Positions 10,224 through 57,230 of a stretch of DNA of 64,000 bases are shown here, piece after piece. Both the position numbers and the translations under genes were made by a program. Below the pieces are notes generated by a model. It saw only the letters and a list, made by a program, of their open reading frames with translations, did no database searches and had not been told where the DNA came from. Numbering within the stretch: the stretch's first letter is position 1; every line of letters starts with the position of its first letter. The stretch is from Somniosus microcephalus (lineage: Eukaryota). Location: the NCBI GenBank assembly GCA_052327205.1, contig JBMRGM010000040.1, positions 41,416,001 through 41,480,000 on the forward strand, written 5' to 3'.

Positions 10224-10876
10224 TCCTCGATGTTCGCAGTGTCAGTTGTTTGGTTTTTTGGGGGGAAAACTGCAGGGAGAGCAGCAACGCTTCGCCTTAG
10301 CGCTGAACTGCGATGGTAGTAAAACAGCCCAGCAGGTTGACAAGCTGGGGCAGCATCTGCAGGGGATGGGTGCCTCGTGGCGGCGCAGTCCTGCCAAGTT
10401 ACCGCGAAAATGTTGTCGGCCTCCGCAGCGAGTGTTGCGCAGTCCTCAATTTCGGAGCTGTTCATGGCAGTTTGTATCGGCTCAGACAGTTGGCTGAGGA
10501 AAAGCTCACGAAATAGGAAACATTCCCGTTCTGAGCCCAGGAGTGTGAGCATTTGGCTCGTCAACTCTGAAGGCTTGGAGTCCCCGAGACCGGGCATAGC
10601 GAGTAATCGACGGACGCGCTCCAATTTTGTGAGCCCGAAAACCTGTAGCAACCGTGCTTTGAGGGTTTCATACTTGCGCTCCGTTGGAGGGTTTTCCAGG
10701 AGGCTGACGATCCGAGAAGAGGTAGAGCTGTCGAGTGCGGAGAACACATAAAGATATTTGGTCTGATCCGCATCGATGATCCTCAGGGCGAACTGGGCCT
10801 CGACCTGGCTAAACCACGAATGCGCTTGCTGCTCCCAGAACTGCGCAATTTTCAGCGAAATGGCGTTTCCCTCCAT
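10214..10876 (-). pseudogene. Gypsy gag
   Basis: Sequence MEGNAISLKIAQFWEQQAHSWFSQVEAQF...PGLGDSKPSEL is typical of small Gypsy gag proteins. The C-terminus appears frameshifted. Confidence 0.85.
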
Positions 10877-10924
10877 GCTGTGCTCTTCCTTTGTGAAAAC
10901 GTTCACAAAAAACGGGGTCACTGA

Positions 10925-11225
10925 TGTAGAAATTGATGAATTCTTAATAAATGACTGAGATCGACACAGGAGAAAAAGCAAACAGGTCTTTACTGAACAG
11001 AAACTTCACGAGGACTTCCTGGGCAGTCACGTGGTTTGCGACGTGGCGTCATCGCGTTTGCCCACGTTTTCCTGCGCTCTTAAAGGGGCCACGCCCCGTA
11101 CATGCAAACTCTATATACAAAACACAGTAATGCCTAACACAATGGTACAGGTTTAGGCTGGTGTTAGAACCTCGCTAAAGGGGATTATATACAGTTAGCC
11201 AGCGTCATTCAGTAGTTCTGCTACA
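10925..11225 (-). repeat. Gypsy 5' LTR
   Basis: TGTAG...CTACA inverted termini, adjacent to the PBS. Confidence 0.92.
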
Positions 11226-14882: not shown

Positions 14883-16889
14883 TGTTGAAGGAGCTTTCGA
14901 AATTAATCCTATAGTCGGCCTTTACCCCATTACCTTGAAAATTAGTAATCTTCATTGTATAACCTCAATCTTCTTATTCCTAATTCTAACCAAATGGATA
15001 GACGTTTTGCACCAATCATATTGATGCACCAATGCAGTCGTCCTTTAATGGAGTCTTTGATTAAAAGTGCCTTTCTACTTAATTTTATCACAGTTGAATA
15101 TTTTGTAACCAGCTATATTTCTCTCCTAGTCTGGAAAAGTAGAAGCCATGTCTAATTCTAAGCCTTTTGATAGAACTGCTCCCCAGTGCAATTTGAGAGG
15201 TTTAACTCCAGAAATGATAGGTTGGAAGTATAAGCAAAGAATAAACAGGCTGAGGTTCATTTCCACTGAAAAGAGAGCGCTATTGTGTGGCCTAATAAAG
15301 GTCATGGATATTATGAAGGTGTTAAATAGGGTAGACCTTAATAAAAAGTATCTACTTGTGGTGGACTCCAAAACTGGGTTCATAAATATAAGATAGTTAC
15401 TAATAAATCCAGTAAATATTTCAGAGAAAACTAGTTTATCCACAGAATGGTTAAAATTCGGAACTCGTTATCCCACAGAATATTTGTGGCGAATAGCATT
15501 GATACATTCAAGAAACAGAGAGATAACCACATCAGGGAGAAAGGAATGGAAGGATGTGGTAATAGGGTTAGGGGGAGTACAGTGGGAGGAGGCTCCTTTG
15601 GAGCAGGAACACCGCCATGGACAGGCTGGGCCCAATGTTCTGTTTCTGTGCTGTCAATTCCAGGTTATTCTTTATCATTTTATGTTTTAAGCCAGGTCTG
15701 TTTGCAGCACCGAAAGGAAAATCTGGCAGTGATTACCGCGACCGTTAAAGAAACCTCGGATTTCCCTGCAGGCTCGATTTCAACCTAACGCTCTGGCTGG
15801 GATGGGGCCACTTTTGATTGTACGACCGTCTATTTTACACCCGTCGATTTTATGTGCCAGTGAATGCTGTGCAGTTAGATGAAAATCAGTGTTTAACTCA
15901 AACTGAAGTATAATTTGGCGGAGTCTAACAGCCAATTCTCATCTGATTTTGCCCGCTTTGCGCAACCAGCCCAGACAAATTTCACTCCCATAGATCGTAG
16001 GAAGCAGGATCCAAACCCGACCGTTCAAACCCTTCAGCCTGTTCCACCATTAAATGGTACAACTCCACTTCATCTTCCCGCCTTTGATCCAGATCTTTGA
16101 TACTCTTAACTAACAGAAATCGACCAATCTCAGCCTGGAAATGATAAATTGGCCCAGCATCTGCAGCACTATGAGGAGCGGGATCCAGGTTCCTACTAGC
16201 ATTTGTGTGAAAAACTGCCTCATAATATCAATCCGACACGGCCGAGCAATAATTTTATGACCATATCTTCTTGTTCGGGATTCCCCCCCGTGGGAAATAC
16301 TTCCCATGTATCGATCCTGTCCAATCCTGAAACATTTTAAATCCCTCAATCAGATCACCAATCATCTTTCTCATTCCCGAAGGAATGCAAAGTTTATCCG
16401 CCATGTCCTTATAATGTAACCATTGTTGCGCTAGTAATATTCTGGCGAGTCTGCGTTACACCCACTCCAATGCCAATATATAATTTCCGATGTTCAGTGC
16501 CCAAACTTGAAGACAATAATCCAGATGGAGTCTGACCAAGGCTGGTTGCAATGTTTCACGGTATGCTCCATAATAAATCCTCCATTTCATTACTGATCGC
16601 ATTCCCTTTTTTTATGAGAACTTCTAATAATTCGTCAGTGGTTTATTGATTTTTATGTCACATTTAACCATTTATTTTAACCACTCCATTAATTGCTGGA
16701 TGTTATTTTACTCCCGCTGCAATACAAATCATTATTGAACTGGTGTTTATATTAAAATTTCCTCCTGAACTCCCCCCCATTCCACTTTGGCAAACACAAT
16801 TGTGACTGAAATTGCAATCGGAGGCCTCCCGCAGACGGAAGGTTGCGACAAGCAAACAAGCTTTGCATTTACCTGCAGGCTCTCTGCAC

Positions 16890-18290
16890 AGGGAGCAGCG
16901 TGGTGAGGAGCCCGGTATAAAAACCGGAGGCAGCAACGAGGCCAGAGCACTCGGAGCAGGGAGCAGCGTGGTGAGACCGGTATAAAAACCGGAGGCACAA
17001 GCGAGGCCAGAGCACTCGGAGCAGGGAGCAGCGTGGTGTGACCGGTATAAAAACCGGAGGCAGCAACGAGGCCAGAGCACTCGGAGCAGGGAGCAGCATG
17101 GTGTGACCGGTATAAAAACCGGAGGCACCAGCGAGGCCAGAGCACTCGGAGCAGGGAGCAGCGTGGTGAGACCGGTATAAAAAACGGAGGCACCAGCGAG
17201 GCCAGAGCACTCGGAGCAGGGAGCAGCGTGGTGAGACCGGTATAAAAACCGGAGGCAGCAGCGAGGCCAGAGCACTCGGAGCAGGGAGCAGCGTGGTGAG
17301 ACCGGTATAAAAACCAGAGGCACCAGCGAGGCCAGAGCACTCGGAGCAGTGAGCAGCGTGGTGAGCCCGGTATAAAAACCAGAGGCACCAGCGAGGCCAG
17401 AGCACTCGGAGCAGGGAGCAGCGTGGTGTGACCGGTATAAAAACCGGAGGCAGCAACGAGGCCAGAGCACTCGGAGCAGGGAGCAGCGTGGTGAGACCGG
17501 TATAAAAACCGAAGGCTGCAACGAGGCCAGAGCAGTCGGAGCAGGGAGCAGCTTGGTGAGACCGGTATAAAAACCAGAGGCACCAGCGAGGCGAGAGCAT
17601 TCGGAGCAGGGAGCAGCGTGGTGTGACCGGTATAAAAACCGGAGGCACCAGCGAGGCCAGAGCATCCGGAGCAGGGAGCAGCGTGGTGAGACCGGTATAA
17701 AAACCGGAGCCAGCAACGAGGCCAGAGCACTCGGAGCACGGAGCAGCGTGGTGAGACCGGTATAAAAACCGGAGGCACCAGCAAGGCCAGAGCACTCGGA
17801 GCAGGCAGCAGCGTGGTGAGACCGGTATAAAAACCAAAGGCACCAGCGAGGCCAGAGCACTCGGAGCAGGGAGCAGCGTGGTGAGACCGGTATAAAAACC
17901 AGACGCACCAGCGAGGCCAGAGCACTCAGAGCAGGGAGCAGCGTGGTGTGACCGGTATAAAAACCGGAGGCAGCAACGAGGCCAGAGCACTCGGAGCAGG
18001 GAGCAGCGTGGTGAGACCGGTATAAAAACCGGAGGCAGCAACGAGGCCAGAGCACTCGGAGCAGGGAGCAGCGTGGTGAGACCGGTATAAAAACCAGAGG
18101 CACCAGCGAGGCAAGAGCACTCGGAGCAGGGAGCAGCGTGGTGAGACCGGTATAAAAACCGGAGGCACCAGCGAGGCCAGAGCACTCGGAGCAGGGAACA
18201 GCGTGGTGAGACCGGTATAAAAACCGGAGGCACCAGCGAAGCCAGAGCACTCGGAGCAGGGAGCAGCGTGGTGAGACCGGTATAAAAAAG
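16890..18290 (+). repeat. Tandem array of 65-bp monomers, 22 TATA-containing units
   Basis: Consensus GCAGGGAGCAGCGTGGTGAGACCGGTATAAAAACCGGAGGCACCAGCGAGGCCAGAGCACTCGGA. TATAAAAA occurs at 16916 + 65n up to 18281. Confidence 0.98.
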
Positions 18291-18549
18291 AGGCACACCA
18301 ACTCAGCAGCGGGGAGAGAGGTAAAATGTAATCAGAGTGTGACGTCACCAGGAAGCAGGTAAGCGATTGGTTGGTGAGTATTTCTCTTATTTAAACTTAA
18401 ACTCTGTAGTTTTTAGTTACTAGGGTCTTTTCTGGTGTAGCAAGGACTGTTGGTAGACTATACACGCGCCTTAGAGATATCTTTAATTGGGGATAGTAAA
18501 TTAATTTAAATTAAGTAAAGGGAAGGTCCTGCCAGGTGAGCACAGACCC

Positions 18550-19479: not shown

Positions 19480-22399
19480 CTTGGCAGGGGGATGGGCTAC
19501 AGAGTGGAGCTATAGCAGGGGGTGATTTACAGCCAAATACAGAGGAAAAAACAAGGCAGAGCAAATATGTGAAGGTAAAAGGGAACATGGCAGGGCTGGA
19601 AGGCATTTATTTTAATGCAAGGAGTCTTGCAAATAAGGTGGATGAACTGAAGTTGTTGTTGAACACATGGGAGTACGATATTGTTGCTATCACGGAGACA
19701 TGGTTGAGGGAGGGTCAGGACTGGCAGCTCAATATTCCGAGGTATAGAATCTTCAGGCGAGACAGAGGGGGGTGTAAAAGGGGAGGGGGTGTTGCAATAT
19801 TAATTAAGGAATCAATTACTGCTGTAAGGAGGGATGATATATTAGCGGCTTCCTCAAAAGATGCCATATGGGTAGAAATTAAAAACAAAAAGGGGGCAAG
19901 CACTTTGCTGGGAGTGTACTATAGGCCCCCAAACAGTCAGGGGGAGATAGAGGAACAGATATGTAGGCAAATCTCAGAAAAGTGCGAAAATCATAGGTTA
20001 ATAATAGTGGGGGATTTCAACTTCCCCAATATTAATTGGGATAGTCAGAGTGTGAAAGGTTTGAGGGTGCAGAATTCTTAAAGTGCATCCAGGAGAGCTT
20101 TTTGAGCCAACATGTAGAAAGTCCTACAAGAGAGTGGGCGAAACTGGACCTAATTCTGGGGAATGTAGCCGGGCAAGTGGTGGAAGTGTCAGTAGGAGAG
20201 CATTTTGGCGACAGTGACCATAAATCGGTGAGATTTAAGGTGGTCATGGAAAAAGACAAAGACGGCCCGGAAATAAGGGTTCTAATTTGGGGGAAGGCCG
20301 ATTTTATGATGATAAGGCAGGATCTGGCCAAAGTGGACTGGGAGCAGCTACTTATAGGAAAATCCACATCAATACAGTGGGAGACTTTCAGAAGGGAAAT
20401 AGCGAGAGTGCAATGCCAACATGTTCCTGTAAAGGTCAAGGGGGGGACCAACAAGCAAAGGGAACCTTGGATGACAAGGGATATACAAAAATGCATTAGA
20501 AATAAAAGGGGGGCTTTTGGCAGTTACAAAAGACTAAAGACGGAAGAAGCCCTAGAGGAGTATACAAAGTGCAGGGGCATACTTAAAAAATATATTAGGA
20601 GGGAGAGGAGGGGCCATGAAATAACACTGGCGAGCAAAATAAAGGAAAATCCTAAGATGTTTTATAAGTATATTAAGGGCAAGAGGATAACCAGGGAAAG
20701 GGTAGGGCCCATTAGGGACCAAAGTGGCAATCTGTGTGTAGAGCCAGATGATGTAGGCGGGGCTTTAAATGAATTTTTTGCATCTGTGTTCACTATGGAG
20801 AGAGACGACGCAGACATCGAAATCGGGCAAGGGGACTGTGACATACTTGAACATATTAGCATCGAGAGGGCGGAGGTGCTAGCAGTTTTAGCAGGCCAAA
20901 AAGTGGATAAATCCCCAGGCCCGGACAAGATGTATCCCAGGCTGCTGTTGGAGGCAAAGGAAGAGATTGCAGGGGCTCTGACACAAATTTTCAGAACCTC
21001 TCTGGCCACAGGGGATGTACCAGAGGACTGGAGAACAGCTAATGTAGTACCATTATTCAAGAAGGGTAGCGGGGATAAACCAGGGAATTACAGGCCAGTG
21101 AGCCTAACATCTGTGGTAGGGAAATTATTGGAAAAAATTCTGAGGGACAAAGTTAGTCTCCACTTGGAGAAGCAAGGATTAATCGGGGATAGTCAGCATG
21201 GCTTTGTCAAGGGTAAATCATGTCTGACAAATCTGATTGAATTTTTCGAGGGAGTGACTAGGGGGGTGGATGAGGGAAATGCTGTGGATGTGGTTTACAT
21301 GGACTTCAATAAAGCTTTTGACAAAGTCCCGCATAGGAGACTTGTCAAGAACGTAAGAGCCCATGGGATCCAGGGTGCCTATGCGCATTGGATCCTAAAC
21401 TGGCTGAGTGGCAGGAGGCAGAGGGTGATGGTCGAAGGTTGCTTTTGTGAATGGAAGCCTGTGTCCAGTGGGGTACCTCAGGGATCGGTGCTGGGTCCCT
21501 TGTTGTTTGTGATCAACATAAATGATTTGGCTGAAAATGTAAAAGGTATGATCAGTAAGTTCGCAGATGACACGAAAATTGATGGGGTGGTGAATTGCGA
21601 GGAGGAAAGCCTCAGGCTACAGGATGATATAAACGGGTTCATCAGATGGGTGGAAAAGTGGCAAATGGAATTTAACCCTGAAAAGTGCGAGGTGATACAT
21701 TTTGGACAGACAAATAAGGCAAGGGAATACACAATGAGTGGTAGGACCCTAGGAAGTACAGAGGGTCAGAGGGACCTTGGTGTACATGTACATAGATCCC
21801 TGAAGGCAGCGGAACAGGTAGATAAGGTGGTTAAAAAGGCATATGGGATACTTGCCTTCATTAGCCGAGGCACAGAATATAAGAGCAGGGAGGTTATGAT
21901 GGAACTGTACAAAACGCTGCTGAGGCCACAGCTGGAGTAATGTGTGCAGTTCTGGTCGCCTCACTATAGGAAGGATGTGATTGCCTTGGAGAGGGTGCAG
22001 AGAAGATTCACCAGGATGTTACCTGGGATGGAGCGCCTCAGCTATGAAGAAAGAATAAACAGGCTGGGGTTGTTTTCCTTGGAGCAAAGAAGGCTGAGGG
22101 GGGACCTGATTGATGTGTACAAAATGATGAGGGGCATAAATAGGATAGATAAAGAGGAACATTTCCCCTTAGTAGGGGGGTCAATAACAAGGGGGCATAG
22201 ATTCATGGTAAGGGGCAGGAGATTTAGAGGGGATTTGAGGAGGAACTTTTTCACCCAGAGGGTGGTTGGAATCTGGAACTCACTCCCTGAAAGGGTGGTA
22301 GAGGCAGGAACCCTCACAACATTCAAGAAGCATTTGGAAGAGCACTTGAAGTGCCATTGCATACAAGGCTATGGACCAAATGCTGGAAAATGGGATTAG
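19467..22399 (+). pseudogene. CR1 ORF2 (APE endonuclease and RT) with two lesions
   Basis: NARSL, ITETWL, YYRPP, GDFN, SDH, GVPQGSVLGP and KFADDTK motifs. One frameshift near 20060 and one TAA at 21938-21940. Confidence 0.95.
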
Positions 22400-22869: not shown

Positions 22870-24919
22870 TGAAATGGAAGCAGCGAGCACATTTGTGATG
22901 ATGAAGCAAGCTCAGAATTTCACTTACGATGACATCAATACACTCCTCAATTAGGTTGAGCAGAAATGCTTGCGGGTCACTTGGACAGAAGTTGCCCAGG
23001 CTGTAAGCGCAAACTCCCCCATTCCATGGAGAGCGGAACAATGCTACAAAAAAATGAATGATTTGATGCGATCGGACAAGGATTGGACAGTTATTAGAAA
23101 TGTCAACTGTAAAATATGTTAAAATTTAATGTTTCTCTTTTATAAAACGTTAAGTTGCATAGCTGTTGTAAAGTGACTTCATTATCCAGGCATCTGACCT
23201 AGTCCTAAAATGTAATCGATTTGGAGTAGTTTTGGGAGATTGATGGTGCTTCTAAATATATTATCACCCCTCCACAGATTTGAGATGTGAAATTTCAATT
23301 AGAGAACAATACCTTGTCTGCAAAGCAGCAACTAATCATTTTTCCAAAGCAGTTGGTTGGGGTCTCTGCATTTCTGATGACAATTTACAGTAAAATGGTA
23401 CATATCGCCAGAGAGCATGCCCTGACAGGTGTTGGTGTTGTCACTCTGACGAAGTTATTGGAACAAGAGGAAAGGGTCACGCACTTGCTTGGAATCAGTC
23501 GTGGATGTTCAGTGCCTGGTGCCCAATCAGACATTGGGGTAAGGAATGGTGAGTTGGTCTGCCTATCTGTATGTTTATAACTGGAAGGTGTGCGTTGAAT
23601 ATTAGCTTCGGTGATGGGGCAGATTATGCGTCACCTTTGTAAATCACAGAAATCACAGAAACCCCACAGTGCAGATAGAGGCCATTTCGGCCCATCCAGC
23701 CTGCACCGACACATGTCCCACCCGATCCCCGTAACCCCTACACCAACACATATCCCACCCTATCCCCGTAACCCCACGTATTTAATCCCTCTAACACTAA
23801 GGGTCAATTTATCATAGCCAATCAACCTAACCCGCACATCTTTGGACTGTGGGAGGAAACCGGAGCACCCAGAGAAAACCCACGCAAACACGGGGAGAAT
23901 GTGCAAACTCCACACAGACAGTCGCCCGAGGCCGGATTCGAACCCGGGTCCCTGGTGCTGTGAGGCAACAGTGCTAACCACTATGCCACCGTAAATGTTT
24001 GCTGTTTCCTTCCCACAGGTGGACAGCTGTGTCTCACACACGGGGTGAACAGTGTTTTGAGTCACCGGCTGCAGAGTGCATTGGGGAAGGGGTTACAGAT
24101 GCAGAGCGAGCTGTAAGTGGGGTGGACGAGGAGGAATTTATGGAGTGTAGCTCGTGGAAGTTGAGAGTATGGTCCCTGGTTGAGCTCCACACCATCTCTC
24201 CATCTCCTGGACCCTCTGGCTCTGTGCCAGGCATCATTTACTGTCGTTCCACAGCCAGACAGCAACCTGATACTGCAGAGCATGTGGGAGAAGCAGGAAG
24301 ACGCGTAACGCAACAAAATGCTACAGAAACACATGTGCAACAGGTTGAACAGTTGAGGCAAGATATGGTTACTCTTCATGCAAAGAAACTTGGGTCTCTT
24401 GCCTCTAACAGGGGGAATTGATGATCTTGGGAGCAGTACATTGCAATTAGTTGGAGACCGGTCCACAGAACTCAATCAGTTCTGCACAACTGCACAGGAA
24501 ATTGTTAATGAGCTTTTCTGATGTGTTTGGCCAAGTTCAATCTGGTGCTTGAGCAGGTTCACGGGTCTCTCGTTCAACTATTGCAGTTAAAGACAGCAGG
24601 TTCGACTGTCGTTCATTTGACCCCCACAGAACCCCGATTGCCTGCTACCAGCGAAGACACAGAGCAGGTCCACGAAAAAGCAGCTCCGCCAATTATGTTT
24701 GAAGTAAATGTTGCCTTTCAGCAGCAGCAGCCGAAACCCTGGCACGAGCCATTTGCTGAAGGGCAAGAGATGTCACACAGGGATCTTTCCCTTAGTATGA
24801 GATGCACAGGTCACGGGGAAGGGCAAATCACAGGAGGCAGTATAGGGCCACTTTTACACATTCCACCTCCTTCGACCATCAGGCACAGATGTGCGGGGGC
24901 ATATCTGTCAATTCTGTAA
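22870..24919 (+). pseudogene. Harbinger Myb/SANT-like gene remnant (copy B)
   Basis: KQAQNFTYDDINTLL...TWTEVAQAVSANSP..WRAEQCYKKMNDL; downstream coiled-coil-like ORFs are shared with copy A. Confidence 0.72.
23645..23990 (-). mobile_element. tRNA-derived V-SINE (HE1-like)
   Basis: A box TGGCATAGTGG, B box GGTTCGAATCC, V-domain core TGTGTGGAGTTTGCACATTCTCCCCGTG...CTCCGGTTTCCTCCCAC, CR1-type tail, and 6-bp TSD GTAAAT (23639-23644 and 23991-23996). Confidence 0.93.
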
Positions 24920-26232
24920 TGTTCTCTCATATTTAAGTATTGATGTTGTGTTATTTCTTGAAATTTATATTCGTGACTGATAGTGTTGTTAAACATTTCG
25001 TTTCATAGGTGTTGCCTCTAGTCACTTTTAAGTTTTAAAAGCTTTTTTAACAATTAATTTAACATTACTACTGTTTAAATAGTGCAAATACCTAGTTTAC
25101 AACTTGAATGTATTTATTGCGCTAAGAAACCCAAAACGTCAATTTAAATTGGTTACATTTTTTGATCACCCAATGTATATTTGCAAACATTTACAATGTA
25201 AAAAATACCTGGGACACAAGTTGTATTTAAAGAATAAGAACATCAAAAAAGTACATCCAAGGTATTATATGCTGCAATAAAAGTTCACTGTTTCTCTTTA
25301 TTTGTGTGTGTTCTTTTCTGTGCCTTGCTGGGTGAGGGGGAGGACCAAGGCGACACTATCATCACCTCGTAAACGTCGTCGCTACTCTCAGTTCCGGAGC
25401 AGTTTGGTTTTGGCTGCACTTGGTTCCTGCATATCAAGACTTGGCATCGACCAAGTCATCTATTTCAGCATGGAGTTCCTCTGCTGAGTTAAGGGTCAGT
25501 CCTTCCAGCAGGGCAAAGTTATTCAAAGAGCAACAGACCACCAGAGCCCTTGACAATATCAAAGGAGAGTACCTCAATGTGCCCCCTGACCTGTCCAGGA
25601 AAGGGAAGAGTAATTCCAGCAGCCCGATTGTCATCTCCACCGCTGCTGTGTGGACACGTGTGCTTGGTTGTATCTCTCCTTTCATCAGCCCCGGCTTTAG
25701 CGGGTAGCCCTTGTCACCCAATATCCATGCCAATTCTGCAGGGAAATTGCTGAGGGCGCCATATCATTCCGTGTGATGGAAGATGAACGAATTCCCCAGT
25801 GATCTGCATTCACGTTTATAATCGTGATTTGCGTCAAAGACTCTCATAACATTTAATGAAAGAAACCACTTCCTGTTGATGTATGTCACAGGTGCATCAA
25901 TTGGTGCCTTCAATGCAACATGGGTTCCATCGACGGCCCCAATCACTTTGGGAAGACTGCAATGCTATACAATTCTGGGCCTCTCCTTTTGTTGCCGAGT
26001 GGATAAGTCGAATTCTATGAACTATGAAGCCCTACGGAAAATGGCATCTGTGATCTGGTCAATGAAGGCCCTCACAGCAGCAGTCTGGGTGATGTTTAAA
26101 ATGTCATTGGCGCCTGACTGAATTGGCGTGTATGCAAAGAAGTTCAATGCTGTGGTTACCTTCATGGACACCGACAGGGCAGTGTGGGTCTTCAAGCATG
26201 TTTTAAGGTCTTCCTTTATCATGCCACATAGT

Positions 26233-29200
26233 ACATAAGAACATAAGAACATAAGAAATAGGCGCAGGAGTAGTCCAATCGGCCCCTCGAGCCTGCTCCA
26301 CCATTCAATAAGATCATGGCTGATCTGATCCTAACCTCAAATCTTCTATCACTCTGCATCCACCCGAACCCATGTGATCTCCCGGGAGAGGCGAAAAACC
26401 AGATAAAGACCCAATGGCCAATTTGGGAGAAAAAAATCTGGGAAATTCCTCTCCGACCCATCTAGGCGATCGAAATTCTTCCAGGAGATCACTCTGTCCC
26501 TATATTTTCTACAGTACTTACCTTCTGTAAAGGCGATCTCCACTCCAGCCAGGAACAGGAATAAAACCATCTCCTGAAATCTAACAGAATTAGAACAAAG
26601 TAGGAGCAGAACAAGGCTACACGGCCCCTGGGCCCGCTCCACTACCCACAGGGCCATGACCATTCCGAACCCAGACTCATGTACAATTTCCTGCCCGCTC
26701 CCCGTAACCCTTTATTCCCTTTACTTCTAGGAAACTATCTATTTCTGTTTTAAATTTATTTAATGATGTAGCTTCCACAGCTTTCTGGGGCAGCAAATTC
26801 CACAAACCTACCACCCTCTGAGTGAAGAAGTTTCTCCTCATCTCAGTTTTGAATGAGCAGCCCCTTATTTTAAGATTATGCCCCCTAGTTCTAGTTTCAC
26901 CCATCATTGGGAACATCCTCACCGCATCCACCCGATCAAGCCCCTTCACAATCTTATATGTTTCAATAAGATCGCCTCTCATTCTTCTGAACTCCAATGA
27001 GTAGAGTCCCAATCTACTCAACCTCTCCTCATATGACCACCCCCTCATCCCCGGGATTAACCGAGTGAACCTTCTTTGTACTGACTCGAGAGCAAGTATG
27101 TCTTTTCTTAAGTATGGACACCAAAACTGTATGCAGTATTCCAGGTGCGGCCTCACCAATACCTTGTACAACTGCAGCAATACCTCCCTGTTTTTATATT
27201 CCAACCCCCTAGCAATAAAAGCCAACATTCCATTGGCCTTCTTAATCACTTGTTGCACCTGCATACTAACTTTTTGAGTTTCGTGCACCAGGACCCCCAG
27301 ATCCCTTTGTACTACAGTACTTTCCAATTTCTTGCCATTAAGATAATAACTTGCTCTATGATTTTTCCTGCCAAAGTGCATAACCTCACACTTTCCAGTA
27401 TTGTATTCCATCTGCCACATCTCTGCCCACTTACTTAGCCTGTCTATGTCCCTTTGCAGGTTTTTTATGTCCTCCTCACTCACTACTTTCCCTCCCATCT
27501 TTGTATCATCTGCAAACTTTAATATGTTACACTCGGTCCCCTCCTCCAAATCGTTAATATAGATTGTAAAGAGTTGGGGACCCAGCACTGACCCCTGCGG
27601 AACACCACTAGTTACTGGTTGCCAATCTGAGAACGAACCATTTATCCCAACTCTCTGCTTTCTGTTAGAGAGCCAATCCTCCACCCACGCCAGAATATTA
27701 CCCCCAATCCCGTGATTTTTTATCTTGAGCAATAATCTTTTGTGTGGCACCTTGTCAAATGCCTTTTGGAAGTCTAAATACACTACGTCCACTGGTTCCC
27801 CTTTATCCACCCTGTATGTTACTTCCTCAAAAAACTCAAGCAAATTTGTTAAACATGACTTCCCCTTCATGAAACCATGCTGAGTTTGCCCTATTAAATT
27901 ATGTTTATCCAAATGTCCCGTTACTGTCTCCTTAATAATGGACTCTAACATTTTACCAACCACAGATGTTAGGCTAACAGGTCTATAGTTTCCAGCCTTC
28001 TGCCTACTACCCTTTTTAAATAAGGGTGTTACATTAGCAGTTTTCCAATCTGCCGGGACCTTTGCTGAGTCCAGTGAGTTTTGGAAAATTATTACCAATG
28101 CATCCACAATCCCTACCGCTACTTCCCTCAAGACCCTGGGATGCAAGCCATCAGGTCCAGGGGATTTATCCGCCTTGAGTCCCATTATTTTACCAAGTAC
28201 CACTTCCTTAGTGATTTTAATCGTATTTAGTTCCTCCCCCCCTAGAGCCCCCTGTTTGTCCAGTGTTGGGATATTCTTAGTGTCCTCTACTGTAAAGACT
28301 GATACAAAATAATTGTTCAGTGTTTTTGCCATCTCCATGTTTCCCACCATTAATTTCCCGGTCTCATCCTCTAAGGGACCAACATTTACTTTAGCCACCC
28401 TTTTTCTTTTTATATAACTATAGAAACTTTTACTGTCTGTTTTTATATTTTTTGCTAATTTACTTTCATAATCTATCTTCCCTTTCTTAATCAATCTTTT
28501 TGTTATTTTTTGCTGTCTTTTAAAGACTTCCCAATCTTCCATCCTCCCACTAGATTTGGCTACCTTATATGCCCTTGTTTTTAGTCGGATACTATCCTTA
28601 ATTACTTTACTTAGCCACGGATGGCTATCTTTTCTTTTACACCCTTTTTTCCTCAGTGGAATATATTTTTTTTGGAAGTTGTAAAATAACTCCTTAAATG
28701 TACACCACTGGTCATGTACCGTCTTACCCTTTAATCTATTTTCCCAGTCCACTCTAATTAATTCCGCTCTCATACCTTCATAGTCTCCTTTATTCAAGCT
28801 CAGCACGCTTGTTTGAGATCCAACCTTCTCACCCTCTAATTGAATATGGAACTCAACCATGTTATGGTCACTCATTCCAAGGGGATCCTTTACTAGGACA
28901 TTTTTAATTTATCCTGTCTCATTACACAGGACCAAATCTAAGGTTGCTTGCCCCCTGGTCGGTTCAGTTACATACTGCTCAAGAAACCCATCCCTAATAC
29001 ACTCAATGAACTCTTCCTCAAGGCTGCTCTGCCCAATTTGATTTGTCCAGTTAATATGATAATTAAAATCCCCCATAATTATAGCTGTTCCATTATTACA
29101 AGCCTCAACTATTTCCTGATTAATACTCCGTCCAACAGAGTTGCAACTGTTCGGAGGCCTATAGACTACACCCACTAGTGTTTTTTTCCCCTTATTATTC

Positions 29201-31059: not shown

Positions 31060-34000
31060 CAATGTACTGTACAATCATCGAATCAAACAGCACAGAAGAA
31101 GACCATTCAACCCATCGTGCCTGTGCCGTCTCTTTCAAAGTCCTAATTAGTGACACTCCCCCGCTCCTTCCCGATAGCCCTGTAATGATTTTCTTTTCAA
31201 ATATCGATTCAATTCCCTTTTGAAAATGACATAGAATTTCATAGAATTTACAGCACAGAAACAGGGCATTCGACACAACAGGTCTTAAAGTGTGTTTATG
31301 CTACATACGAGCCACGACCCACCTTAATGCATCTCACCCTATCAACCTTTCCTTCTATTCCTTTCTCCTGTATTTACTAATCTAGCTTCTCCTTAAGTGT
31401 AGCTATGCTAATAGCCCCAACCACTCCTTCTGGGGGCGAGTTAGTTCTGAATTGCGTGTTGCATTTCTTAGAGACAATGTTCCATTATTTTCCCCTAGTT
31501 TTGAAATCGCCTCCAATTAGAAATAATTGGTCTATGTCTCCCTGATCGATACCCTTCATAATTTATAAATACATCCAAAATATCGCCTCTCAGTCTTCTA
31601 TTTTCTAGAGAAAAGAAGCCCAACCTGTTCATTCTTTCCTGATAATTGTGTCCTCTCAGCTCTGGTATCATACCTGTAAACCTTTATTGCACTTCCTCCA
31701 ATGTTGTAATATCGATCCCAGAATAACAGTACTCTAAGTGGTCTATATAATGCCAATACAAATTCTCAGCTTTCGAATTCAATTAATCTAGAATTTAATT
31801 CGCTGCTATTTATTGCACTTTTTATGGTTCTGTTTACTTGCGTTGCTACTTTTCATGATTTGTGGATTATTATCATTAGTTGTATTTGCGCCTCTACCCT
31901 GCATAAATCCTTATTTTCCAAGGAGTATGTGGCCTACATAACCCTCATAACAAAATTCACAACCTCACAATTATCTATATTGAATTTAATTGGCTATTTA
32001 CACGCCAATTCTACAATAATGTTAATGTGGTCTTGTATATTGTGGCATTCTTCCTCAATATTAACTATAGCCCGCAATTTGGTTTCATCTGCAAACTTTG
32101 ATATTGTACTTCCGTTTCCAGAATCCAAATCTTTTATGCAAATGGTGAAAAACAGTCGTCCCAACACTGATCCTTATGGAACGCCACTTCCCTCCTTCAA
32201 CCATTCTCAGTTGGTAAATTTAAACCCTATTCTCTATTTTGTAGCCGTTTGCGAACCATTCTGCCACTTGTACCCTAACGCCAAGTGCTCTGACGTTACT
32301 CACGAGTCTACTATGTGGTACCTTATCAAAGGCCTTTTGGAAGTCCTTTCAGGGGCGGAGAATGTTGAAAGCTGGGAAACTTAGCACCGGGCACTAAGGC
32401 TTCCCAACTTTTTGCAACATATGGTATTTCCGCTCCATGAAGGAAGTGGAGCGCTAAATGAAGTGGGCTACTCCCTTCCCGGAGCACTAAATGATGTTCG
32501 TGGGGCAGTAATAGTGCAGTGCTGCACAATGACACGTGCAGCGCTGCCGTGGTCCAAGGCTCCATCCCTCCCTTAAAGGGATTGACCATTGAGGCAAGCA
32601 CTGCATTGGGAAGAGTTAGCTGGTCCACAAAGGAAGCCAGGAACCGGCCCTGTCCGACCCGTGCACTCCAGTAGAGTGTCGGGCTGATCGAGCACGGCCC
32701 AGGCGAATATAAACAATTTAAAAAAATGACAGAAATGTTCCTACTTACCACGGCAACCTCCCCTTTAACTTCCGCCCCCGAAGCACCCGGCCTACCGAAC
32801 AGTGCCTCCTGCAGCTGTCGGTGATTTCGCTCGGCGATGCTGCGGGAGGCGGAACTGAATTTTGGGTCGGTGCGCTAATGGGGCGACGTGCACGGCAATG
32901 ACGTCTCAATCAACTATTTGAACTGAGCGAAGTACATATTTAATATTTCTGCCATTTCACTGATATTTCTGGCACAGGCATGATGGGCCAAATGGCCTCC
33001 TACTGCGCTGCAAATTTCTGTGTTTACCTGTGAATTTATATTATGCTTCCCTTACCAGCCATTTCACCATCTTAATTTTGATTTGTTATGTATGTGTTTG
33101 TTTCGTAATTCCTCTTTCCCTTCCTGATTGATTGATAAATATTTCCTAACATTCTCCTATCCCTTTTGTCATCCTCTCATTCTTGTATATGTACTCTTTT
33201 ATGACTTTTTCTTTCATTTCAGTTTTACGATTTCCTCTTTATTCATCCATGCTGATTCATTAATGGCCCAGAAATTCGGGTCTGGTGCTTCACGCGTGTG
33301 CAAGCACTCGATCTGCACTTACCTAGCGCACTGGCTATTGAGCTGTGAGCCCGCATGGGATTCCAATCCTGGGCCAGCTCCAGCTGTCGGCGCACAGTGC
33401 TTACATATCCCAGGGGCGCAGTTAGATCAATGCATCCCTTGGGATCACGTGGGCCATGGGCAGCCAATCGGAGCAGGGAATGCTCCATTCATAAGTCTGA
33501 CAGGAAGTGCTGTCAAACTTAGAAATACTACCGGCCCCTAAATATCACTAAATCTTGCAATAAATTTTTTTTTAAATCACATTTTTAAAATAATCTATAA
33601 ATTACATGAAATAACTTTTTTAACAATTATTTTCATTTTTGAAAAAATAATTTTAATTTCTAACCGGACTAAAAATAAACTGACCTTTTTTTAAAGTATT
33701 TAAAAATAATAAACCTGTGAATAAAATGTTTTAAGTTTAATTAATTCACCACTTACCTTGTAAAAAGCATGCCTTATGCCTGCTTTTTACATGTCTAACT
33801 TCTGGAGACTTACCCTCCCGAGAATACTTGCAAAACTAACCAAAGTTTGCTTATGCGCTGCCTCTCCCACGCATGCATTTGACCTCTGAACCACTGCTTA
33901 CAGGGGAATGGGAGTGCCGGTTTCCCGCACATGTGCAGTGCATGCAGGAAACCGGCACTTCCATTGGGCCTACGGGTGAGTACCCCATGCGTACTCACCT

Positions 34001-34475
34001 GTGGAGAACAGAATTTCTGGGCCATTATTGAACGGTTTATGACTATTTTATTGGAATAAATTTCCCCAAAATTTTCCTCAGCTCATTTTAAATATTTGCA
34101 ACAGCTCATTGTCAGTATTTTTTTTGCAGATTACGTGTCCTATTACCATTTTCATTCCCGCATAAGAAGCATTTTCCCAATCTATTACATTGGTCTTTGC
34201 CTTACAAAAGTCTTTCTCACACAATATCTTAAACCTTATAAAAATGTGATCGCCATTGCCCTTATGCTCCCTACAATTTCTTCTGTTGCCTGCTGTGGCC
34301 CATTACTAATTGCTACATCCAGCAGTCACTCATTTCTTGTTGGGATTCGTACCTACTCGTTAAGAAAGAAGTTCTGTACAAACAATAAAAATGGCCTTCC
34401 GTTTTCCACTTTACCTTAATCGTCCTCCAGTTTAGGTTGTATTAGTTGAAATGTCAGATGATTATATTCTATATA
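31060..34475 (-). mobile_element. Decayed CR1 and SINE tails (segment X, copy 2) with MITE insertions
   Basis: Direct paralog of 5120-6830 plus 11226-11442. A GC-rich MITE-like insert lies at about 32350-32920. Confidence 0.7.
33265..34023 (+). mobile_element. Harbinger-type MITE
   Basis: TIRs GGCCCAGAAATTC and GAATTTCTGGGCC. Same family as 56169-56932, in opposite orientation. Confidence 0.88.
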
Positions 34476-34829
34476 GGGCTAGATTTTCAGTATAGCCAGT
34501 TTTGGGGCGCTAACCTTAGCGCCCGCCCGAAGTTAGCGCCCGCCCCAAAGTAGCGCCCCGTTGCCGGGAATTCAGTGGCTTCACCCTAAGAGGTTGGTGG
34601 AGCGCTAAAAGAGGCATTCCACTACTATCTTTAGGCGCTAAGCCGGCGGTTCAGAGGGATAGCACCTAGGCGGGGCGCAGCGCGGGTGCGGTCATTTTTG
34701 GACTGACAGCAGACCCCGTGGCGCCGACCAGCTCTTAAAGGGGGAAGGGACGAATTGGTCTGCTGCCACGCTCTGCACTCTGCAGCTTTGCAAAGAGGCC
34801 TCAACACTGCTGCTCAGCCCCAGGGAGTC

Positions 34830-36716
34830 ATGGCAACGCCAGAGAAGGCCCGTCAGCCTGCCCTGCGCTTCTCAGAGGGTGATCTGGACATAATGGTCAC
34901 AGCTCTGGAGGTGAGGCGCAAGATCTTGTTCCCAGAGAGTGGGAGGAATCCAACCCACCACGACTACACCAAAGCCTGGAAGCAGATCGCCCAGAGGGTG
35001 ACGTTCACCGGCGATGCCCGCAGGACCCACAAACAATGTCGTAAAAAATACAGCGACCTGACCAGGATTGTCAAGGTGAGTAGCCTTTCCAGTCTCCTCC
35101 TCATTCTTGCATGTACACCTGACATGATGGGCAAAGGGAGCTGAAAGTCCTATTGGCCAGCCCTCAGCCAGCAGCATTGGGACAGTCATGAGCATCAAAT
35201 GGCCATTCGGCACTCTACACTTTGGCCAAGCTATTCCACCATGGGAGGCTGTGAACACTACATCAGGGCTTCACTCTGGCCAAGCTATTCCACCATGGGA
35301 GGCAGTGCACACTACATCAGGGCTACACTGCGCACTTACAACCCGTCCTTTCTCTTGCAGGCTAAAGTAGCCTTTAATCGCCAGGCCCGTGCTAGGGGTG
35401 GCCGCGCCAAGCTGCAGAAGCTCACTCGGCTGGAGGAGCGCGTGTGTGTGCTCATGGGAGCCCGTGTGATCGTCCCCACAGCGTGCGGAGTATCCGACAC
35501 TCCACTGCCCAGCAATGGTAAGGACCTCGCCTTTTGGCCCTCTCGCGTCGCACTGGCCCATCCGAGCTACCTCCTTTGCCACTGTCCCACAAATGCGCTG
35601 AATGCCACCAGTCCTAACTCCCTCGCTGACGCCGTCTCCTCACTCTGAAGCTACTCTTGTGCATTCCTGCTTTCAGCTGGTGACGACCAGGACCCTGAAG
35701 CTGCCAGTGACAGCACCTCCGAGCAGGAGGAGGAGGAGGAGCAAGCCGGACCATCGGGGGAACAGTCACGTCCCGCAGGAGAGGAGGAAATGCTTGACAC
35801 CTCCTCACTGGACGAGTGCCTGGAGGAACTGTCGCAGGGCAATGTAGCTTCTGGGACCAGTGGCATCCAGCCACCTAGGAGCCGTGCGCGTGGCCCGCGG
35901 CCTTCCCCCCAAAGGGGGGAAGGATCAGAGGGGAGTGCTGCTGATCGGCACACTCTCCGCCACCAACGTGGCAAGGGTCCCTTAGTTCGGCCCCCTCCTC
36001 CCCAGCGGGAGAGTCGCGACTCCAGTCCGGACACCTTCACCTCGGAGGAGGTGCGGAAGCTGGATAAGATGGCCGAGGATTCGGACCGGCGCCACACGGA
36101 GCTCATGAGCGTGGTGGGGCGCATGCCTGAGGCCATCGAGTCGCTGGCGACCAGTGTGCGCGAGTTCGGGGCAGCAACTGCCGTGAGTGGCCGCATGCTG
36201 ACTGATGCCGTCAAGACCCTGGCGGATGTGATGCGCGCGCACACCAGGACAACAGAGGCACTCACTGCTGCCACATGCGCTGTCTCAGGCAGGCATCGCC
36301 AGGGCAGCCGCCGCGCTGGACCATCCCAGCAAGCCGCCCCTCGGCTGATTGTTGCGGATCCTGCAGTGTGGGCCCGGCCGAGTGCCACCATGCCACAGCA
36401 CCAGCCAGCGCATCCCAGACGCCAGCCGGCCCACATTGCACCATCCGTCGCCGCCATTCCCCCACTGGGGCATCAAGGGCAAGCGGCTGCAGCTGATGGT
36501 GGCCAGGCTCATGTGCGCCACTCAGCAGACGGCCCCTCGAGGCCCAAACGCCGTGTAGGCCGCCCCCCAGTGGCATCTGGCGGAAGGGCATCTGAGCCTC
36601 AGGCACCTTCCCCCAGCCTCGCAGCAGCCACTGAGCAGAGCTTGCGAAGGAGCAGCAGGCCGGGCAGGGGAGGCAAAAGGCTGGGCAAGGTCTCGCCCTC
36701 GCAGGCCACTCAGTAG
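34830..36716 (+). CDS. Harbinger Myb/SANT-like DNA-binding protein; exons 34830-35075, 35361-35517, 35677-36716 (480 aa predicted)
   Basis: RFSEGDLDIMV...WKQIAQRV...RTHKQCRKKYSDL. Junctions AAG|GTGAGT, TTGCAG|GCT, ATG|GTAAGG and TTTCAG|CT keep the frame (phases 0 and 1) with no stops. Confidence 0.88.
35217..35328 (+). repeat. 54-bp tandem duplication in intron 1 of the Myb gene
   Basis: Two copies of ...TGGCCAAGCTATTCCACCATGGGAGGC.GTG.ACACTACATCAGGGCT. Confidence 0.9.
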
Positions 36717-36943
36717 AGGGTGTGGCCAGCTTTCCTTTTATATGGCGGTGGCCATCTTTATTTTGCCCATGGTTGTGTTGTTGGAGGGCTTATTTTTTGC
36801 ATTAGGCCGACGTTGAGGCCCGGTTTGAAGAAATGTGTAGTGACTCCTCCCCAGTTTGCGGGAGTGAGTCGTTTGTTGGGCTTTTTGTGGGGCCCGTTTT
36901 TGTTTTTGGGGATTCATGTGGGAAGGGCTTTTCATTTTTGTGT

Positions 36944-36963
36944 AATAAATAATTATCTTTATT
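36944..36963. terminator. Back-to-back polyadenylation signals for the convergent Harbinger genes
   Basis: AATAAA on + at 36944-36949 and AATAAA on - at 36958-36963, between the two stop codons. Confidence 0.6.
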
Positions 36964-37078
36964 CATGCAGTCTCCATGGTTGTTCTTCTTAGTGTTTGTT
37001 GGCTTCGCCGGCTGAGGGCTTGCGGAGCGGCTGCATTCATCTTCCCTCATGGCCCCTGGCCATTCCCTGACAGGGGGC

Positions 37079-38220
37079 TTAGAAGTACCGTGTAATAAGG
37101 TGGCGTCGTGCGGCCCTTGGCCCTGGTCGCTCCCTCCTGGGAACGTACTCCTGCTCCTCCTCCACCTCCTCCTCATGCTCCTCCTGCTCCTCCTCCTGAG
37201 GTGCTGGTCCAACGTCAGGTGGCAGTGCCTGAGTCCTGCGGATAGCCAGGTTGTGTAACATGCAGCAAACCACCACAAATTGGGAGACCCGGTCCGGCGA
37301 ATACTGGAGAGCTCCTCCAAAGCGATCAAGGCAGCAGAACCGCTGCTTGAGGACCCCAATAGTTAGCTCGATGATGTTGCGGGTGGTTTGATGGCTCTCG
37401 TTGTAGGCCTCTTCAGCAGCGGTCCTGGGCGCGCAGAGCGGGGTCATGAGCCAGGTACACAAAGGATAGCCTTTGTCCCCGAGCAGCCATCCTCTTGGGG
37501 GAGGCTGTGCCTGGAACATGTCATGCACGGTACTCTGCCGCAGGATAAAGGCATCGTGGCTGCTGCCTGGGAAGCTGCATTTGACTGCCATGATGCGCTG
37601 CTTGTTGTCACACACCAGCTGCACATTCAGAGAATGGTAGCCCTTCCTGTTGCGATACTGCTCGCCATGCTCCAGAGGGGCCCGCAAAGCCACATGCGTA
37701 CAGTCAATGGCGCCCTGCACCAATGGGAATTTCCCGAGTCTGTAAAATCCCAATGCGTGCTGATGCTGGCTCTCCAGGGCCATGGGGAAGGAGATGAATT
37801 GGCTTCTCCTTCTGAACAGTGCTTCGGTCACCTGGCGGATGCAGTGATGCGCGCCGTACTGGGTGATGTTTGCTATGTCCCCAGCAGCGTATTGGAAGGA
37901 GCCGGTGGCATAGAAGTTCAATGCCACCGTCACCTTCACTTCCACCGACAGAGACGTCCTGCACCTGAGCTTTGGCCGCAGATCTCGGCGAAGCAGGTGG
38001 CAGATCTCTGCAATCACCTCCTTTCGGAATCGGATCCTTTTAACACATCGCGCAGCACTCATGTTTAGGTAGGAGTGCTGCTGGCGGTATAGCCTGACTG
38101 GGTAAGGCCTACGTGGCCAACGCCGGTAGCCCCCTCTGCCTCTAGCCAGGGCTGCCCCTCTCACAATGCGTCTGCGAGCCCTACAGACATGGAGCTGCAG
38201 CTCCGCGTTGGCACCCCATG
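37079..38220 (-). CDS. Harbinger DDE transposase (HARBI1-like), intact ORF of about 380 aa
   Basis: GAIDCTHV, SSHDAFIL, LLGDKGYP, RNIIELTIGVLKQRF and CCMLHN motifs. The start is probably MGVTWG, with a TATAAA on the minus strand near 38392-38397. Confidence 0.95.
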
Positions 38221-38729
38221 TAACCCCCATAAAATCCTGGCAAACACTCAAATTTCCAAAAGGCCACTTGCAGCGCTCTGGCCTGAGTCCAAAAATACCT
38301 GGCTCTTGCTGCTTGAAACCAGTTAGCTATCCTCCTTGTTGTGTCTCCAGAAATGCGTTGCACAAGAGTGTTTTCTGAAAAAAGGCTGGCCTTTATACTG
38401 GAGTGCACGTCCCCTTTAATTTGCGCCCCCCAGGGCCCACGCTGGTTGTGTTGCGTTCCTTTTTCCAAACGCTCCGGCCGCCAGCCGCACAATGGGGTGG
38501 TCCGACTGAAGTTTGGAATCGGGGCGGCCAAAGGGCGTTACACGAGGATGTGACGTCATTTTCTGTGTGCGCGTCCGGCCGGGCGCTAAACTTTGCGCCG
38601 GCGCTAACGGGCAACTTAATTTGGGGCGGTGCGCAAACTGCGCTGCGCATGGGCACTACACGCATAGCGCCCGAAAATCACTTCTCTTAAGGCGCTAACT
38701 GCTGGCGCTAGCAACTGAAAATCTAGCCC

Positions 38730-38927
38730 AAAGTGTCTTGATATCACATGCTTTATAATTGACTCTAGCATTTTCCATACTACTGATGTTAGGCTAACCA
38801 GCCTGTAGTTTCCGGTTTTCACTCTCCCTCCTTTCTTAAGTAGTGGTATTACATTTGTCGCCCTCCAATCTACAGGAACTATTGCATAACCTATAGAATT
38901 TTGGAAGATTACAACCAATGCATCCAC
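38730..38927 (-). mobile_element. CR1 RT fragment
   Basis: DALVVIFQNS...GNYRLVSLTSVV. Confidence 0.85.
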
Positions 38928-56079: not shown

Positions 56080-57230
56080 GGTTGTCTTATGAAGAACATT
56101 TGAGCAGGTTGGGCCGATACTCATTGGAGTTTAGAATATTGAGAAATGATCTTATTGAAACTTATAATGACCCAGAAATTCGGGTCTCCACGGTTGAGTA
56201 CGCACGGGGTACTCGCCCGTGGGCCCAATCGAAGTGCCGTTTTCGTGTGTGCACTGCACATGCGCGGGAAAGCAGAACTTCCATTCCCCTGAAAGATGGG
56301 GTTAACAGGTGGAACGCGTGCGTGGGAGAGGCAGCGCGTGCACATTTAACTTACTATTTTTTCCAGGTTTCTCCGGGAAGGTAAGTCTCCAGAAATTAGA
56401 CACGTAAAGTGCAGTCCTCATGCCTGCTTTTAAAATGGTAAGTGGTGCATTAATCAATGTTATAACATTTTTTACACAGGTTTATTATTTTTAAATACTT
56501 CAAAGAAAGGTAAGCTTATTTTTAGCCCCGTTAGAAAATGTAATTAATTTTTTCAAAAATGTAAATTATTGTTTAAAATAGTTATTTCATGTAATTTATA
56601 GTTATTTTAAAAATGCAATGTTTTTTTTTAATTTATTTGAAATTTTAGTTACGTTTTGGGGCTTATAGTATTTATAGGATTGACAGCTCTTCCTGTCAAA
56701 CTTATGAATGAAGCATACCCTGCTACCATTGGCTCTCCATGGCCCACGTGATCCCAGGGGGTTGACTCGAACTAACTGCGCCCCTGGGATACACAAGCAC
56801 TGCGCGCCGGCAGTTGGAGGAGGCACAGGATCGGAATACCACGCAGGCCCACATCTCAACGGCCGGTATGCTAGGTAAGTGCACGTCAGAGGCTTGCACC
56901 CGTGGGAAGCCACCGAACCGAATTTCTGGGCCAATATTCTAAGTGGGCTTGACAGGGTAGATGCACAGATAATGTTTCCTCGCGTGGGGGAATCTAGAAC
57001 AAGGGTGGCATAGTTTCTAATTGGAGATGAGGAGGCATTTCTTCTCTCAGCGGGTCGTGAACCTTTGGAATTCTCTACGTCAGACAGCTGTGGATGTTGG
57101 GTCATTGAATATATTCAAGGTGGAGATAGACAGAATTTTGAATTATAGGGGAATCAAGGGTTATGGGGAGCGGGCAGGGAATTGGATTCGAGGCCAAGAT
57201 CAGATCAGTCATAGCCTTAATGAATTTTAA
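56080..57230 (+). mobile_element. CR1 3' fragment interrupted by a MITE
   Basis: SYEEHLSRLG...LIETYN|ILSGLDRVD rejoins across the MITE. Confidence 0.85.
56169..56932 (-). mobile_element. Harbinger-type MITE with AAT TSD
   Basis: TIRs GACCCAGAAATTCGG and CCGAATTTCTGGGCC, AAT on both sides, homologous to 33265-34023. Confidence 0.9.

Follow-up and report, generated by a model that had tools for sequence, protein, structure and literature searches.

A two-gene Harbinger-type element in the window

The window, by which we mean the whole 64-kb stretch of Somniosus microcephalus DNA that was analysed, contains a natural full-length two-gene transposon of the Harbinger type. As the preliminary description had stated, both reading frames of this vertebrate copy are open. 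Its features, in forward-strand order, are as follows.

34473..34475, +, left 3-bp flank ATA, imperfect target duplication
34476..38729, whole element, autonomous-type Harbinger (PHIS superfamily) DNA transposon, 4254 bp, delimited by terminal inverted repeats (TIRs) and read depth
34476..34491, +, left TIR, 16 bp, 100% complementary to the right TIR
34506..34641, left subterminal TTAGCGCC cluster, 4 copies in both orientations, putative Myb-protein sites
34830..35075, +, exon 1 of the Myb-like gene, Myb/SANT domain, aa 1-82, Myb_DNA-bind_5 (PF13873), E 7e-11
35076..35360, +, intron 1, 285 bp, GT-AG, homology across the junction
35361..35517, +, exon 2 of the Myb-like gene, homology to the gene model P0004 up to aa 121
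35518..35676, +, intron 2 (predicted), 159 bp, GT-AG, from splice consensus and frame only
35677..36716, +, exon 3 of the Myb-like gene, to the stop, acidic, low-complexity
36944 (+, Myb gene) and 36958-36963 (-, transposase), convergent poly(A) signals AATAAA, predicted from sequence
37079..38230, -, transposase gene, 383 aa, intronless, D176-D252-E288
38582..38698, -, right subterminal TTAGCGCC cluster, 3 copies, putative Myb-protein sites
38714..38729, -, right TIR, 16 bp, 100% complementary to the left TIR
38730..38732, +, right 3-bp flank AAA, imperfect target duplication; a CR1 LINE fragment begins here and runs to ~38934

The TIRs are perfect, as had been described; the element starts with GGG, and at its left end read depth jumps from ~200 to >10^5. 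The motif TTAGCGCC occurs seven times in the 64-kb window against 0.91 expected, a count that 0 of 100 shuffles attained, and every match lies no more than 170 bp from an element end. These clusters are candidate binding sites of the element's Myb protein.

The two 3-bp flanks are unequal (left ATA, right AAA). On the right, the flank is a piece of a CR1 LINE that is truncated at the TIR and is 77% alike over 204 bp to another copy in the window; on the left, a faint continuation of this piece could be traced (12 of 16 letters; 128/5000 shuffles). The target of the insertion was most likely a CR1 LINE fragment. A chimera of two insertions is a possible cause of the mismatched flanks, against which stands the weak continuation of the CR1 piece into the left flank. 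Joints from 38730 and 38737 to 34474 appear in one public contig set (X1).

High CpG content had been listed among the distinguishing features, and that did not hold. The CpG density of the element is 55 versus 26 per kb, and these high counts follow from its GC content of 59%. The observed/expected ratio is 0.63; outside the element it is 0.54, and among 103 overlapping stretches taken from there, 22 attain 0.63. We therefore rejected CpG content as a sign of youth.

The transposase frame (38230-37079) runs without a stop, as claimed, and matches Pfam DDE_Tnp_4 (PF13359, E 7e-38). D176, D252, and E288 are each the commonest residue at their columns among 120 aligned homologues. The protein retains 101 of the 108 columns conserved in at least 75% of these homologues, which ranks among the best of them; it carries F304 where S stands in 105 of 116 homologues, along with further rare residues. 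A structure model (pLDDT 88) adopts the DDE-transposase fold, with piggyBac (Z 9.3, rmsd 5.3, 234 aligned) and then Tn5 (Z 9.1, rmsd 5.7) as the nearest folds. The structure-comparison rows for this model included no PIF/Harbinger structure, a sequence search found no solved structure, and a Foldseek search at E 0.001 gave zero matches. The paired poly(A) signals previously noted lie between the two genes, facing each other.

The three exons of the Myb-like gene, which faces the transposase gene, splice in frame to give 480 aa. Intron 1, which contains a 54-bp tandem duplication (35215-35322), is supported by the sawshark gene model P0004, whose alignment passes the junction of exons 1 and 2 with no gap at that point (38% over aa 1-121, E 1e-13); this model was the sole Myb-gene match among 248 proteins from the transposase search. 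Thus, of the three-exon gene originally proposed, the 480-aa frame and intron 1 were borne out, and intron 2 stays a prediction. RNA-seq, which had been suggested as a check on both introns, yielded no spliced read among the 15 of 29 joints listed. Exon 3 has no Pfam match, and, as weak evidence, a protein search found no homologue of it at E 0.001 among 8000 candidates; equally weakly, a search with exon 1 among longer proteins (46 candidates) returned nothing at E 0.001. For exon 3, the ESM Atlas gave a chordate cluster without a name as its best match (0.91), followed by Myb/SANT clusters (0.77-0.78) and NAIF1 (0.77), all of which fall below the level of reliable recognition and serve as leads only.

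Known Harbinger systems and relatives in sharks and rays

The combination of a DDE_Tnp_4 transposase with a separate Myb/SANT gene, a 16-bp TIR starting with GGG, and a length of 4254 bp places the element in the PHIS superfamily, whose members are described as ~4 kb long with TIRs that are mostly <60 bp and start with A or G (PMC4482050). The same account gives a target site duplication (TSD) of three base pairs, TWA for PIF/Harbinger in the strict sense and CWG for the NuwaI group (PMC4482050). ATA and AAA are each one change off a TWA, a different TWA in each case, and neither flank resembles CWG. In that source, 88 PIF/Harbinger and 11 NuwaI families are classed as potentially active by a rule of two intact open reading frames, and the zebrafish element Harbinger3_DR is filed as NuwaI-2_DRer (PMC4482050).

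Compared by description rather than by alignment of sequences, Harbinger3_DR resembles the element in length (4204 versus 4254 bp), in its Pfam pair (DDE_Tnp_4 and Myb_DNA-bind_5), and in its short TIRs (12 versus 16 bp). The right flank of the element, GTGTCT, also bears a weak likeness (5/6 letters) to half of the reversed Harbinger3_DR target AAACACCWGGTCTTT, as that target is given in PMC3016246. Harbinger3_DR differs, however, in its TSD (CWG, as opposed to flanks of ATA and AAA) and in its Myb protein (221 versus 480 aa), and its activity is reported only for the reconstructed element (PMC3016246, PMC2836001). Harbinger-Snek of sea kraits, likewise compared by description, is a natural and very abundant two-gene vertebrate Harbinger, and its fully intact copies are reported to number 269 in L. 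colubrina and 1 in L. laticaudata; RNA over both genes is reported from a sea krait other than the one with 269 copies (PMC8437027). In contrast to the element, Harbinger-Snek is described as having come in recently (15-25 Mya) by horizontal transfer from marine invertebrates (PMC8437027). Intact natural vertebrate Harbingers are already published (PMC8437027), and the element in the window is a new shark family of an established type.

None of the marks of a domesticated gene (single copy, freedom from TIRs, purifying selection) was found in the element. The domesticated genes HARBI1, NAIF1, and MSANTD1-4 are single-copy and without TIRs. They share the two domain families of the element by descent but are host genes conserved across jawed vertebrates (PMC9392472), whereas the element is a TIR-bounded, high-copy repeat.

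A search with the transposase found 349 proteins, of which the best 120 were listed; the top 48 all come from sharks or rays, at identities of no more than 62%, and a profile-free search of cluster representatives gave the same top matches. These nearest proteins are elasmobranch models named "putative nuclease HARBI1" (from Pristiophorus, Heptranchias, Mobula, Narcine, Carcharodon, Scyliorhinus, and others). At ≤62% identity, all are too distant to belong to the same family as the element. Some species have dozens of them per genome, a number suggesting that these models are transposon copies labelled with the name of the domesticated gene. One, P0004, holds both the Myb and the DDE domain in a single model. 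Since the nearest proteins all come from sharks and rays, the comparison points to a long vertical residence of the element lineage in elasmobranchs.

Harbingers are reported as undetected in the elephant shark (PMC9179366) and are merely listed for the whale shark in another paper (PMC8455134). Literature search listings gave no paper on this family or on shark Harbingers in detail; Repbase, Dfam, or the repeat supplements of shark genome papers may name the family. By recording a large Harbinger family in a group as thinly covered as the elasmobranchs, the element has modest importance.

The family in public data and the private changes of the window copy

Of 17 public runs listed, eleven, spread over five studies and four organism labels, contain all or part of the stretch; that listing gave no RNA run as containing it. 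Four runs were compared in detail, namely, the contig sets X1 (organism A) and X2 (organism B) and the RNA runs X16 and X17. Summed contig depth within the element is ~1,900 times (X1) and ~5,200 times (X2) that of the unique flank contig, ratios that overlapping short contigs inflate and that differ from true copy number. This depth marks a dispersed multi-copy family, which we put, roughly, at a thousand or more copies. The matching records mostly resemble the window copy at 90-99%. Among the listed variants there were just two common indels, and because both are noncoding, the majority of the family keeps the reading frames of the window copy. Since Logan contigs lose rare variants, a sub-family of a few copies close to the window copy is possible.

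The window copy itself proved distinct from this majority. At 38 or more places in the element, counted among the 40 of 471 variant rows listed, nearly all contigs and RNA reads differ from the window, and at many of them the letter of the window has either zero contig depth or ~1-2 single-copy depths out of a total of 10^5. The 38 listed changes comprise 26 transitions, and 13 are of the CpG type; by hand count, 30 run from GC to AT and 3 in reverse. No near-fixed private indel was present among the listed rows. An assembly error is an unlikely source of these letters, given the bias toward transitions and CpG sites, the lack of indels, and a unique left flank that shows 1 difference in 350 bp from both contig sets. 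The listed places set a floor of 0.9% on private divergence, and the share of the element's 31-mers that are held (0.60-0.61) translates into 1.6-2.1%; we estimate 0.9-2%. The near-identity to the family majority and to sister copies that would mark an active autonomous element is missing.

The private changes are unevenly spread over the two genes. In the Myb coding sequence, 16 of 19 listed places change an amino acid and 3 are silent, which is neutral-like (neutral expectation, 70%; p 0.22). The Myb domain holds three of the changes (aa 10, 64, and 75), that at aa 64 being the loss of a proline that P0004 also has, and 11 of those listed fall in exon 3. The transposase has only 4 listed places where ~10 are expected by length (one-sided p 0.08), 3 of them silent and 1 amino-acid-changing. 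Either the transposase has stayed nearer than the Myb gene to the form typical of the family, or related families may have displaced some of its rows from the listing. The window copy has retained both frames, both TIRs, all four splice sites, and the DDE triad.

The junction of the left flank with the TIR lies within a single contig in X1 (32 letters inside the element) and recurs in X2 (30 letters inside, one under the bridging rule). Because both contig-set genomes carry it, the insertion predates their split, however shallow. The 15 of 29 joints listed include none that skips the element, as an empty site would produce. The epaulette shark mutation rate is reported as 7e-10 per generation with an upper bound of 14.1e-10 (PMC10587355); at the shark rate, 0.9-2% corresponds to ~6-30 million generations, a rough figure in which neither fast CpG sites nor differences between species are taken into account. 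A single-rate Poisson fit to the likeness of RNA reads (~5.5-6%) fitted poorly and included related families, and was dropped for dating. With indels at 5% of substitutions, both frames would survive in 19% of copies at 1% divergence and in 4% at 2%; counting stop codons alone, the figures are ~45% and ~20%. In a large family, intact frames are thus unsurprising, since 4-45% of copies would keep them by chance.

RNA was assessed in X16 and X17, which come from one study of organism A and were read to 24% and 31%, respectively. They gave 7,529 and 10,171 reads matching the element, on both strands, of which 9% and 7% are ≥99% alike to the window copy. At 25 non-CpG places, the family letter is seen in 4,758 of 4,821 read observations and is lacking in 63; the reads derive from other family copies, not from the window copy. 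The depth bin of intron 1 exceeds the exon bins. Over the 3' half of the transposase, reads show a strand bias consistent with sense RNA in a usual stranded library, and many of these strand-biased reads have loose ends and probably stem from related families. Overall, the RNA looks like read-through of many old copies, which does not imply silence in the germ line.

Status of the window copy and of its family

We consider the window copy most likely (probability about 0.8) to be a fixed, neutrally decaying full-length passenger of a large cartilaginous-fish Harbinger family. An old passenger is the likeliest reading because the copy has dozens of mutations absent from the rest of the family. 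Its insertion, whose target was most likely a CR1 LINE fragment, would be old, and the copy would then have become fixed and decayed neutrally while both frames happened to stay open. Weighing on the other side are the intact frames, splice sites, TIRs, and DDE triad, the lack of near-fixed private indels among the listed rows, and a well-conserved transposase with few, mostly silent listed changes. The preliminary description had called it a candidate active element; that label is weakened by the ≥38 private changes, the ATA/AAA flanks, the presence of the insertion under two organism labels, and RNA that comes from other copies. We infer that this copy no longer yields a working protein pair, and, judged from its sequence, transposition activity is unlikely.

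The way in which intact members of the family would move can be extrapolated from Harbinger3_DR and Ping/Pong, and parts for each step are present in the element. In those systems, both proteins are required for transposition, the Myb protein binds the ends as well as the transposase and imports the latter into the nucleus, and the transposase moves the element by cut-and-paste, duplicating 3 bp (PMC2836001, PMC9179366). By analogy, the spliced Myb/SANT protein, from one of the two convergent genes, would bind the element ends, probably at the TTAGCGCC clusters, and would also bind the transposase and carry it into the nucleus. There the RNase-H-fold DDE transposase would cut at the TIRs and paste the element elsewhere with a 3-bp duplication.

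Three other readings of the window copy were weighed. It could be a working source, or part of a very small young sub-family, that mobilises itself and non-autonomous relatives. Every part of the element is intact, the transposase model is good (pLDDT 88), the few listed transposase changes are mostly silent, and the family is transcribed; against this stand a neutral-like pattern of protein changes in the Myb gene (three in its domain, including the proline loss at aa 64), the GC-to-AT bias, the imperfect flanks, the left junction common to two organism labels, and the near absence of RNA with the window copy's letters. We judge a working source highly improbable. A half-working helper, whose transposase would function in trans with another copy's Myb protein or whose DNA could be moved by proteins made elsewhere, fits the contrast between the genes at the listed places (1/4 amino-acid-changing in the transposase against 16/19 in the Myb gene), the intact TIRs and subterminal motifs, and the solo-ORF variants known in Harbinger-Snek (PMC8437027). 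That contrast may, however, come from the selection of variant rows, F304 and the other rare residues weigh against a functional transposase, and the two RNA runs hold no sign of expression of the window copy, so that this reading too is quite unlikely.

A HARBI1/NAIF1-like domesticated gene pair retained for a host function would account for open frames at a fixed locus, would suit the database name of the relatives, and has precedent in the recurrent domestication of Harbingers in vertebrates (PMC9392472). It is nevertheless exceedingly improbable: the TIRs are perfect, the family depth is very high, the Myb gene lacks purifying selection, the best of 349 matches reaches 62% and none is a near-identical orthologue, and the two RNA runs gave no locus-specific RNA.

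With the window copy read as an old passenger, we asked separately about its family. That the family, and probably not this copy, retains working source elements in the shark lineage is suggested by its thousands of copies, the collinear frames of its majority, and abundant RNA with a transposase-sense bias; we hold this tentatively and regard it as doubtful. If true, the family would be a naturally mobile vertebrate Harbinger, of which a literature search at the level of titles found no report. It would then offer a two-protein, target-selective tool needing no reconstruction, and would allow the activity of a DNA transposon to be gauged directly in a vertebrate group whose mutation rate ranks among the slowest. 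The copies differ by only a few per cent, so that the majority sequence of the family would readily serve as the starting point for another vertebrate Harbinger system in addition to Harbinger3_DR. In slow-mutating sharks, the presence of two intact genes is a poor indicator of activity.

Features within and beside the main Harbinger element

To the right of the main two-gene Harbinger transposon (34476-38729), the adjoining flank carries GTGTCT at 38733-38738, five of whose six letters match one of the two halves of the zebrafish Harbinger3_DR target in reversed reading; the left flank is without a match to that target half. One contig joint in a public contig set extends 8 flank letters, to 38737. 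An extended target preference is possible.

Intron 1 of the Myb-like gene contains a tandem duplication of 54 bp (35215-35322, 93% identity between units), and contig joints there suggest that family copies vary in length at this duplication. Read starts from two RNA runs of one study cluster at 36982 on the plus strand (34 in each run) and at 38228 on the minus strand (14 and 28), where they adjoin the start codon of the main transposase. Both clusters may reflect library bias.

A second, decayed Harbinger transposase

A decayed Harbinger transposase lies at 25431-26231 (minus strand), with 37% against the main transposase over 291 amino acids, and is a member of another family. It is truncated near 26240 by a CR1 tail. 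Facing it is a decayed piece at about 24091-24800, which may be its Myb-like partner; positions 2-872 of the window are an 81% copy of this piece.

Other repeats in the window

Repeats identified elsewhere in the window
7500-11005, minus: retroelement remnant, broken across several frames
16700-18390: tandem repeat array, producing long repetitive open frames
20045-22399, plus: LINE ORF2 stretch, with upstream pieces
26677-28908, minus: LINE ORF2 stretch, with upstream pieces
33261-34028: MITE-like element, about 770 bp, whose ends are inverted and which encloses a hairpin at 33907-33965

On our reading of the sequences, we take both ORF2 stretches, one of which has a frame open across 743 amino acids, to be CR1-type LINEs and the retroelement remnant to be that of a Gypsy-like LTR element. 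The MITE-like element has a further copy (81%) at 56164-56936.
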